Of a stretch of 51,502 bases of DNA, positions 17,057-18,457 are shown in pieces. The translations under genes were made by a program, and so were the position numbers. The notes below the pieces were generated by a model that was not told the origin of the DNA, did no database searches, and was given only the letters and a program-made list of their open reading frames with translations. The DNA is taken from the NCBI RefSeq assembly GCF_003334255.1, contig NZ_QOWU01000037.1; one strand, 5' to 3'. Position 1 is the first letter of the stretch. The number at the start of each line of letters is the position of its first letter. The stretch is from Escherichia coli. Its GTDB lineage: Bacteria; Pseudomonadota; Gammaproteobacteria; Enterobacterales; Enterobacteriaceae.

Positions 17057-18275
17057 TGGCGTTATCCTTCTGCTTACCGGCTTTACTGCCATCGGAGGGT
17101 TTCGTGGTCATGTTCATCGGTGTGAGATAGACATCCCCACCGGGACGCGGATTCATATCTTCCAGGTCGCGGCAGTCATTGGGAGAGTAAATTCCCCAGT
17201 TAATCCCGGTGGCGTAGGCTTCAAAACGGGACTTCATATCCCCGCGCAGTAACGCCCCGGCGTTAAATTTGGCGTAATAAACGCCCTGCTTACTTTTTCG
17301 TACCAGTCCGGTGTTGATCCGCTGCTCAATGCGGGTCAGATACGGCACCAGTGAATAGTTGATAAATCCCAGCCCCAGTTCTTCGATATTGTTGAAGGTG
17401 GCGCGATCGGTGTTCTGCACCATGTGCAATGGCACACGGAACAGACGACAGATTTCTTCAAGCTGAAACTTGCGGGTTTCCAGGAACTGGCTGTCCTCGG
17501 CGTTCAGCGCCATCGACTTCCAGTCCAGCCCCATCTCAAGGATCATCGGGCGGTGAGCATTACCAAGCCCGGTGTGACGCTCCTCAAAATCTTTCTTCAG
17601 ACGCTCATAAGCCTGATCCGACAGCGTCTGCTCTGTACGCAACACACCGGACGTCACCGCACCATTGCTGAACAGTCTGGCCCCGTGCTCTTCGGTCGCA
17701 GCTGCCAGCGATATTGCCTCGCGGGCATAGGCGATGGGATTCAGTCCCACCAGACCGTCCAGCGTTAGCGTGCGCACATGCCAGATATCTTCCTGGCTCA
17801 GTACATCCGTGGAGCCGTCCGGGAATGTGACCTGGTAAACCGGTTCCCAGCTACTGTTAAGCTTCGGTACCACACAACCTGGGTCGACGGGCAGCAGTTC
17901 AGCCACTTCGCCAAATGCTTTCACTTTGTAGGCGTAAAAGTTTCCCCGCAGGCACAGACAGGTGACCACCAGCTCCCAGAACTCCTGCGGCGTCATATAG
18001 CCATTGGGATGCGTGGAGATCAGCTTATGCAGACGTTCGCCGGTGGCTCTCTGTTTCAGGCTGCCGTTCAGGTGATACAGGTTGCAGGGCAACATCCCGA
18101 CCGACTCCGCCAGCACCCTGACGCAGGAAAAAACCGCCGTCAGTCGCATGGCCCGCTGGCTGCTGATCTGCTTTCCGGTATAGGTGTCATATGACAGCCC
18201 GATAGCATCCGCCAGCTCTGCTGGCGTGGTCACCGGTGCGTCACTTTTTCGTTGAAATAATCCCGAAAAGAACAC
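17034..18275 (-). CDS. Portal protein, HK97 family
   Basis: 413 aa between terminase and protease. Confidence 0.85.
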   Translation of the reverse strand: MFFSGLFQRKSDAPVTTPAELADAIGLSYDTYTGKQISSQRAMRLTAVFSCVRVLAESVGMLPCNLYHLNGSLKQRATGERLHKLISTHPNGYMTPQEFWELVVTCLCLRGNFYAYKVKAFGEVAELLPVDPGCVVPKLNSSWEPVYQVTFPDGSTDVLSQEDIWHVRTLTLDGLVGLNPIAYAREAISLAAATEEHGARLFSNGAVTSGVLRTEQTLSDQAYERLKKDFEERHTGLGNAHRPMILEMGLDWKSMALNAEDSQFLETRKFQLEEICRLFRVPLHMVQNTDRATFNNIEELGLGFINYSLVPYLTRIEQRINTGLVRKSKQGVYYAKFNAGALLRGDMKSRFEAYATGINWGIYSPNDCRDLEDMNPRPGGDVYLTPMNMTTKPSDGSKAGKQKDNANADETTS

Positions 18276-18457
18276 TATTTACCTCCGCCGACAGACGGCT
18301 GTGTACGGTCGAGATATCGCGCCACCAGCCACGACCAGAACAGGCACAGCGCCCCGGCAACAACAAACCCCGCCGGGGGATAAATCAGCCAGGCACCATA
18401 CGCCAGCAAAAGCGCACCCAGCACGCCCACCAGAGGCGCGAGAATCAGCATGATCAT
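18275..18457 (-). CDS. Small two-helix membrane protein (60 aa)
   Basis: Two hydrophobic stretches ([21 protein letters not shown] / [15 protein letters not shown]); sits between terL and portal. Confidence 0.4.

Follow-up and report, generated by a model that had tools for sequence, protein, structure and literature searches.

The closest described counterparts of ymfR, the prophage gene analysed here, are Sb3 of Salmonella phage ST64B and L37 of phage phiP27, together with the protein annotated as "putative integral membrane protein" in the Shigella phages SfI, SfII and SfIV. All of these are the same gene in the same slot, between the genes for terminase's large subunit (TerL) and for the portal, and the phage copies are 91-100% identical to YmfR over the part that can be aligned by tblastn. 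Two other small phage proteins resemble YmfR in form and position. Orf59c of Sfi21 ("DUF1056", phrog_1142), which occurs in Streptococcus and Lactococcus phages, comprises 59 amino acids (aa), forms a hairpin of two transmembrane (TM) segments like YmfR, and in 78 of the 79 IMG/VR loci with enough flanking sequence has TerL on one side and an HK97-type portal on the other. Orf3 of Pseudomonas phage D3 (phrog_4810), with 54 aa, is likewise a two-TM hairpin and overlaps both of its neighbours, and its family is found between TerL and portal in 80/80 IMG/VR loci. Here, we compare with these systems the ymfR gene in a 51,502-nucleotide stretch of Escherichia coli DNA (contig NZ_QOWU01000037.1 of assembly GCF_003334255.1; the whole stretch is hereafter called the window). 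A preliminary description of the window had noted an open reading frame (ORF) of 60 aa with two hydrophobic helices between terminase and portal, in a position usually devoid of genes, and had proposed that it could be a moron, for example one with superinfection-exclusion or holin-like activity. The comparisons indicate that ymfR is very probably a real late-operon gene encoding a membrane hairpin of the head module, and not a moron.

The ymfR ORF spans positions 18275..18457 on the minus strand (60 codons, ATG at 18457, TAG stop at 18277..18275). Its upstream neighbour, TerL (18469..20202, minus strand), matches phrog_9 with an E value of 6.4e-197, and its downstream neighbour (17034..18275, minus strand) is an HK97-family portal that matches phrog_12 (E = 2.2e-146) and the NCBIfam model TIGR01537 portal_HK97 (260 bits against a cutoff of 112). 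The translated product is 100% identical to the RefSeq "protein YmfR" WP_000605605.1, with equal coding sequence coordinates in E. coli G1/2, and the 3.3 kb around the gene are 100% identical to the prophage of that strain, which is integrated beside tRNA-Thr and proA. In K-12, the gene is b1150 and lies in the defective e14 element. The 60-aa ORF is ymfR, a named yet uncharacterised prophage gene that is not new to the catalogue. Megablast matched the 3.3-kb ymfR region to 1,634 of 5,426 complete E. coli genomes, and among the matches listed, ymfR is present under every full-length match; in K-12 derivatives, only the central part around ymfR matches this region. In the literature searched, ymfR occurs only in e14 gene lists and in one study that used it as a neutral integration site, called it uncharacterised and described its deletion in K-12 as having no phenotype (PMC9145139); no functional study of ymfR, of DUF1056 or of small membrane ORFs between terminase and portal was found in this literature.

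Since 107 ORFs of at least 30 aa overlap the same 9-kb stretch as chance background, a length of 60 codons alone is no evidence of a gene, and the ymfR ORF is taken as real because it is conserved. In a protein collection clustered at 90% identity, 167 clusters match YmfR at E<=0.01, nearly all of them 60 aa long, with hosts in Escherichia, Shigella, Salmonella, Citrobacter, Klebsiella, Enterobacter, Yersinia, Hafnia, and Buttiauxella, and an exhaustive search of 50%-identity representatives yielded 169 matching clusters (E<=1e-3), almost all of 50-70 aa. The ymfR frame is the sole one of the six frames that is open in 48/48 distinct family members. An antisense ORF at 18236..18472 (plus strand) was considered and rejected, the antisense frames being open in 3, 12 and 31 of these 48 members. 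Residues 1-55 of YmfR match positions 3-57 of the 58 in phrog_502 ("membrane protein", E = 1.7e-28), which is its only PHROG match. Searches of Pfam (E<=0.001), NCBIfam and PADLOC gave no significant match for YmfR, a PDB sequence search with the family profile returned only chance matches to TM segments (the best being Lgt, E = 0.049), and no RNA element was identified near the ORF when the whole window was scanned against Rfam. Conservation in related prophages, which the preliminary description had put forward as a check, is evident from the phrog_502 match, from the 167 and 169 clusters, and from the synteny described below.

Kyte-Doolittle means are at least 1.3 across residues 1-47 of YmfR (19-residue windows), and AlphaFold2, run on a 48-sequence alignment, predicts helices at residues 2-25 and 29-52 separated by a 3-residue turn (mean pLDDT 73.7). 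Helix 1 (TM1; codons 2-25, 18383..18454, minus strand), which is delimited by AlphaFold2 and hydropathy, carries the nearly invariant residues G11, G14, G21, and W23. The turn, Y26-P27-P28 (codons 26-28, 18374..18382, minus strand), is non-helical in the AlphaFold2 model and lies at the centre of the conserved family motif. The hydrophobic part of helix 2 (TM2; codons 29-46, 18320..18373, minus strand) contains the invariant G35 and the conserved C38, W41, and S42, and a basic residue is conserved directly after it (R47 in YmfR). The family signature reads G11-x-x-G14, Y/F-G21-A-W23, a P-P/x-A-G turn and G35, followed by C38, W41 and S42; the N-terminal "MIM" of YmfR is not conserved within the family, and the family length range in refined gene calls is 52-71 aa. 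The composition and predicted fold of YmfR fit an integral inner-membrane helical hairpin, and the two hydrophobic helices between terminase and portal noted at the outset are confirmed by translation, hydropathy, AlphaFold2, and the PHROG assignments of the neighbours. A Foldseek search of the AlphaFold2 model against BFVD gave zero matches at E<=0.001, a bare hairpin being too generic for a fold search.

Among close alleles, the ratio of nonsynonymous to synonymous substitution rates (dN/dS) is 0.38 overall, 0.23 over codons 1-47 and 0.81 over the 13-residue tail, and that of the portal on the same loci is 0.09. The hydrophobic core of YmfR is under purifying selection, and the 13-aa tail, which has a net charge of +2, evolves almost neutrally. 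Both ends of the protein are likely cytoplasmic, which would place the W-x-x-Y-P-P-A-G turn at the periplasmic face; this N-in/C-in topology is suggested by the conserved Arg/Lys after TM2 and by the Arg-rich N-terminal extensions present in many relatives. Tandem double hairpins also occur among the family representatives, with P0140, P0150, P0187 and P0216 each containing two complete hairpins; P0216 is encoded between TerL and portal with the customary overlap, and the P0187 gene directly precedes a portal. These two-copy fusions, together with the Gly-rich helix faces, suggest that the YmfR hairpin may work as a parallel dimer or a higher oligomer. The P0150 gene (L189, 1500..1808; metagenome contig Ga0376689_0103876) is not bracketed by a recognisable TerL and portal. 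Upstream of it are genes for proteins of 161 aa and 320 aa, and downstream one for a protein of 100 aa, none of the three with a PHROG match, followed by an S78 protease gene; the locus could represent a very divergent head module or else a satellite.

The spacer between the TerL stop codon (TAA, 18471..18469) and the ymfR ATG measures 11 nt and holds the ymfR Shine-Dalgarno sequence GAGGT (18462..18466, minus strand; CTTTAACTGAGGTAATTATG), 4 nt upstream of the ATG. At the other end, the last codons of ymfR are GGC GGA GGT AAA TAG, and the portal Shine-Dalgarno sequence GGAGGT (18281..18286, minus strand; GGCGGAGGTAAATAGTG) sits inside codons 58-59 (Gly-Gly), 5 nt ahead of the GTG that starts the portal gene. 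The ymfR TAG and the portal GTG share one base in a TAGTG stop/start overlap (18273..18277, minus strand), and RefSeq places the ymfR/portal boundary identically (coding sequence ends 21276/21276, L003). Of 159 related loci, 146 have a 1-nt stop/start overlap (TGATG, TAATG or TAGTG), among them members of only about 35% identity, and most of the 13 loci lacking it probably reflect the start-codon heuristic. Judged from the sequence, the overlap is predicted to couple translation of the portal to that of ymfR. Many family members end in G/E-rich tails ("GG", "EG", "GGE") that derive from GGAGG- or GAGG-like codons, and these endings are likely to be largely an imprint of the portal ribosome-binding site, an interpretation that the near-neutral evolution of the tail fits. 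A consensus scan revealed no promoter- or terminator-like site flanking ymfR, and the numbers of matches (2 promoter-like versus 3.2 expected, 6 terminator-like versus 4.3 expected) show no excess over shuffled sequences; one weak promoter-like match (9/12 positions) lies inside terL at 18998..18970, about 510 nt upstream of ymfR. The GC content at third codon positions (GC3) is 0.69 in ymfR versus 0.66 in TerL and 0.66 in the portal, and the higher total GC content of ymfR arises from codon positions 1 and 2, owing to the Gly/Ala/Pro/Leu content of the protein.

Synteny was assessed in 160 IMG/VR contigs, namely 80 loci with a near-identical YmfR and 80 reached via diverged members (43 distinct small proteins in the first pass, many from GC-rich hosts); the small protein itself served to find the loci, and close relatives without ymfR thus lie outside the sample. 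Among the close loci with enough flank, the order TerL-ymfR-portal is present in 79/79 with identical spacing, and among the diverse loci with enough flank, TerL lies directly upstream and the portal directly downstream in 78/78. The same order occurs in four of five distant metagenomic representatives, the flanks of the fifth being too short to assign. Across phages of Proteobacteria, the ymfR family (PHROG 502) is always located between TerL and portal, and in the deepest comparisons to the window copy, the small protein retains 32-37% identity, TerL about 20%, and the portal about 28-31%. In mosaics with a swapped TerL (L102, L113, L152, L156, L157, L160, and L168), TerL is 38% identical to that of the window, the small gene 77-92% and the portal 85-100%; the swap junction lies at the terL 3' end or within the first ymfR codons, giving the N-terminus MFLIIL instead of MIMLIL. 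In the converse case, with TerL at 90% and the portal at 71-77% identity, the small gene is 62% identical. Over 65 discordant locus pairs, mean identities are 0.38 for TerL, 0.70 for the small gene, and 0.83 for the portal. In these TerL exchanges, the small gene remains with the portal.

To place this arrangement among other HK97-type head modules, 17 records were sampled at even steps down a ranking of 2,059 phage genomes with a matching portal. TerL and portal are adjacent, leaving the slot empty, in nine of the 17, and HK97 and mEpX1 have no gene between TerL and portal. A two-TM ORF of 52-67 aa fills the slot in four (Vibrio phage K303, Ralstonia phage Dina, Enterococcus phage phiSHEF2, and Bacillus phage phIS3501), and the other four records are Javan32, CJIE4-5, PhancyPhin (with a 69-aa ORF), and an Stx phage with a rearranged module. 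The slot is often empty, and when it is filled, a hairpin miniprotein is the typical occupant. The view that this position is usually devoid of genes therefore holds for the nine empty modules, HK97 and mEpX1, but not for the four sampled phages, D3 and Sfi21 that hold a hairpin ORF there. Slot inserts of another kind were seen in Streptococcus phage Javan32 (L174, 1436..2333), which carries three small soluble ORFs, possibly toxin-antitoxin-like, and in Campylobacter phage CJIE4-5 (L178, 1817..2251), which carries an annotated MazF toxin gene; both inserts look like genuine cargo genes. The hairpin slot gene is sometimes left unannotated. In phIS3501 (NC_019502), an unannotated ORF for a 53-aa two-TM protein, MRFLLFFISILEDILLISGLSIIVGTTFFVNPIYGWYLLGIILTMLGVVMIRR, at approximately 21246..21407 (L175, 2323..2484), sits within the 188 nt that separate TerL from portal, is preceded by an AGGAGG Shine-Dalgarno sequence, and is probably a missed gene.

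The occupants of the slot differ in their relation to YmfR. Against the hidden Markov model (HMM) of the YmfR family, the proteins of K303 and Dina reach 14.9 and 24.3 bits, respectively, values attained by 0/500 composition-matched shuffles, and these scores identify them as distant relatives of YmfR. The family-HMM scores of phiSHEF2 gp04, the phIS3501 ORF, Sfi21 orf59c, and D3 orf3 are no better than those of shuffles, and hhalign did not detect homology of YmfR with D3 orf3 (probability 1.5%) or Sfi21 orf59c (probability 0.4%). For Sfi21 orf59c, the reciprocal HMM score is -0.3 bits, within the range of shuffles, and for D3 orf3 the HMM score is below the shuffle mean; each belongs to a PHROG separate from that of YmfR. 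Sfi21 orf59c also differs from YmfR in its Gram-positive hosts and in having a 17-nt gap before the portal instead of an overlap, and D3 orf3 differs in its conserved tail AAFIRKGLTSE and its siphovirus context. Membership of YmfR in DUF1056 was considered and rejected, given zero Pfam DUF1056 match, the hhalign value of 0.4% and the different PHROGs. By these comparisons, at least three hairpin families that appear unrelated in sequence (PHROGs 502, 4810, and 1142) share the TerL-portal slot.

A possible function is suggested by T4, in which the portal initiator formed by gp20 assembles membrane-bound and needs the phage chaperone gp40, which is not found in the virion (PMC9958956). The likeness proposed between T4 gp40 and YmfR is one of functional analogy only, both being seen as accessories for the portal ring at the inner membrane. 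In T4, gene 40 is not known to lie beside the genes for portal or terminase. By this analogy, YmfR may be an oligomeric factor of the inner membrane, made late, by which the assembly of portal and prohead is localised or nucleated, an assignment that we offer as tentative and would not call probable. YmfR would be made late and in step with the portal, insert into the inner membrane, oligomerise via its Gly-rich helices, and act as a membrane-side accessory of portal or prohead assembly. It might do so by binding portal subunits; alternatively, its co-translational insertion might draw the ribosome and mRNA to the membrane, where the same ribosome would re-initiate on the portal gene and produce a high local concentration of portal protein. 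An assembly role is favoured because the unrelated families share only a small hydrophobic hairpin placed directly upstream of the portal and usually coupled to it, because the small gene stays with the portal in TerL swaps, and because the membrane-bound portal initiator of T4 and its chaperone provide a precedent (PMC9958956).

Several observations weigh against an assembly role. HK97, mEpX1, and seven other sampled phages with related portals have no hairpin gene, and since these phages lack it, HK97-type head assembly does not need the hairpin; with the gene missing from HK97, YmfR would be an accessory and not a universal requirement. Global partial rank correlations of the divergence of the small protein with that of TerL (0.43) versus the portal (0.39) do not favour the portal, and an MFFxGLF-type motif at the portal N-terminus lends no specific support, as portals that lack an upstream hairpin gene have it too. 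Close gene packing and stop/start overlaps occur commonly across the late operons of phages and are no proof of a functional link. To our knowledge, membrane-associated head assembly is established only for T4, and not for HK97-like phages. Deletion of ymfR from K-12 caused no host phenotype (PMC9145139), but this result is uninformative because e14 is defective.

In place of an assembly role, YmfR could be a late membrane effector unrelated to assembly, acting in exclusion, in holin triggering or lysis timing, or in membrane energetics during packaging, and its position beside the portal would then reflect timing and dosage only. We consider this unlikely. The gene is expected to be expressed with the late operon, and a protein of about 60 aa with two TM segments and probable N-in/C-in topology has the architecture of class II holins, pinholins (S21), HK97 gp15, and small exclusion proteins such as T4 Imm, which blocks DNA entry of superinfecting phage; all of these are small, with two TM segments and probably cytoplasmic ends, like YmfR. 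The T7 genome, in which lysis and packaging genes are interleaved, provides a precedent for such a placement. In addition, an analogue occurs in phiSHEF2, a member of a genus described as virulent, so the hairpin function must operate in lytic growth. However, YmfR has zero family-level matches to holin or exclusion proteins in Pfam, PHROGs, NCBIfam, and PADLOC, and ymfR is not located beside an endolysin gene. A full cassette of pinholin, signal-anchor-release (SAR) endolysin and Rz-Rz1 is already present about 4 kb away (22020..23235, minus strand), beyond terL, terS, and an HNH gene. It consists of the S21-like pinholin EssD (22975..23235, minus strand; RefSeq annotation), the endolysin RrrD with a Gly/Ala-rich, SAR-like segment at its N-terminus (22478..22975, minus strand), and Rz with an embedded Rz1 (22020..22493 and 22079..22261, respectively, minus strand). 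Holins have one or more TM domains and a charged C-terminal tail in the cytoplasm, often together with a dual-start motif; the short, almost neutrally evolving tail of YmfR seems unlike such charged regulatory tails. Timing alone would leave unexplained why at least three unrelated hairpin families stand at the exact TerL-portal junction and at no other late position. With no supporting match in these databases and the lysis cassette elsewhere in the window, the superinfection-exclusion or holin-like activity raised in the preliminary description finds no support.

The proposal that ymfR is a moron, expressed from the prophage and giving the lysogen superinfection exclusion or some other benefit, is improbable. 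PHROGs places phrog_502 in the category "moron, auxiliary metabolic gene and host takeover", which probably only reflects the "membrane protein" label. The gene is also intact in K-12's defective e14, between what is left of the genes for terminase and portal, and the weak promoter-like match inside terL (18998..18970) lies upstream of it. Morons of the HK97 gp15 type carry their own promoter, whereas ymfR has no promoter or terminator above the level of shuffles and is enclosed by the 11-nt spacer upstream and the 1-nt overlap downstream. Its composition is not foreign (GC3 0.69, against 0.66 in each neighbour), and presence/absence variation was not seen, with ymfR carried by all 79 close loci of sufficient flank (themselves retrieved through the small protein) and absent only from distant head modules such as HK97. 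Furthermore, its position is strictly kept across deep divergence, it is conserved to the same depth as its essential neighbours, its translation is apparently coupled to that of the portal, PADLOC gives no match at E<=1, and the K-12 deletion had no reported phenotype (PMC9145139). Taken together, these signals, the composition, the portal overlap, and the deep conservation speak against the moron proposed initially. A genuine moron of the window, an iss/bor-type lipoprotein gene, looks quite different from ymfR. This textbook moron, annotated in RefSeq as "increased serum survival lipoprotein Iss", occupies 21695..21988 on the plus strand, between the lysis cassette and the HNH and terminase genes.

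It is very improbable that the ORF serves as a translational coupler only, handing ribosomes on from terL to portal in a fixed ratio by way of a functionless peptide. The conserved stop/start overlap, the portal Shine-Dalgarno sequence within the last ymfR codons, and the tail dN/dS of 0.81 agree with such a device, but a dN/dS of 0.23 over codons 1-47 does not, and neither do the invariant or nearly invariant G11, G14, G21, W23, and G35, nor a turn motif kept across at least 48 diverged sequences. The length is held at about 52-71 aa, tandem duplicates exist, and the analogues of other lineages are all hydrophobic hairpins too, where a pure coupler could have any sequence. Finally, a head-completion (head-tail joining) protein like gpW of lambda, where the 68-aa W is encoded between gene A (large terminase) and gene B (portal), is the label that several GenBank records give to the ymfR homologue, but this identity is effectively refuted by an hhalign probability of 1% over one aligned column (family profile against a gpW sequence entered by hand) and by the hydrophobic residues 1-47 of YmfR as against the soluble alpha/beta gpW, and further downstream the prophage carries head-tail connector and head-closure genes of its own. 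The records concerned (ON470580, ON470603, ON470584, and PQ793804) read "head-tail joining protein W"; the label appears to have been transferred by position from lambda and is contradicted by the sequence and the predicted fold.

The window contains three further features outside the head module. An ompC-like porin gene, mapped from the identical RefSeq genome to approximately 23779..24861 (plus strand), is found between the gene for the antiterminator Q homologue and those for lysis. A tRNA gene (Thr, RefSeq) at 38492..38564 (minus strand) adjoins the integrase gene and is probably the prophage attachment site. Near the end of the window, Rfam identified an ALIL pseudoknot, a frameshift element of the IS3 family, at 50966..51082 (plus strand; 121 bits).

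For the annotation of this prophage and its relatives, ymfR should not be counted as a moron or a lysogenic-conversion gene, and the GenBank label "protein W" is wrong. The hairpins encoded next to the portal include PHROGs 502, 4810, and 1142/DUF1056 as well as unannotated examples, in phages of both Proteobacteria and Firmicutes, and such a portal-adjacent class extending across families appears not to have been discussed in the literature searched. These portal-coupled membrane hairpin miniproteins could constitute a widespread, as yet undescribed functional class that tethers or nucleates the portal, the procapsid or the packaging motor at the membrane, although we regard so broad a generalisation as doubtful. 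If the hairpins serve another late function, they would still be among the commoner uncharacterised classes of late genes. If the class does act in assembly, membrane-associated head assembly would extend from T4 to many HK97-type phages, filling a gap in how HK97-type heads start assembling on the portal.

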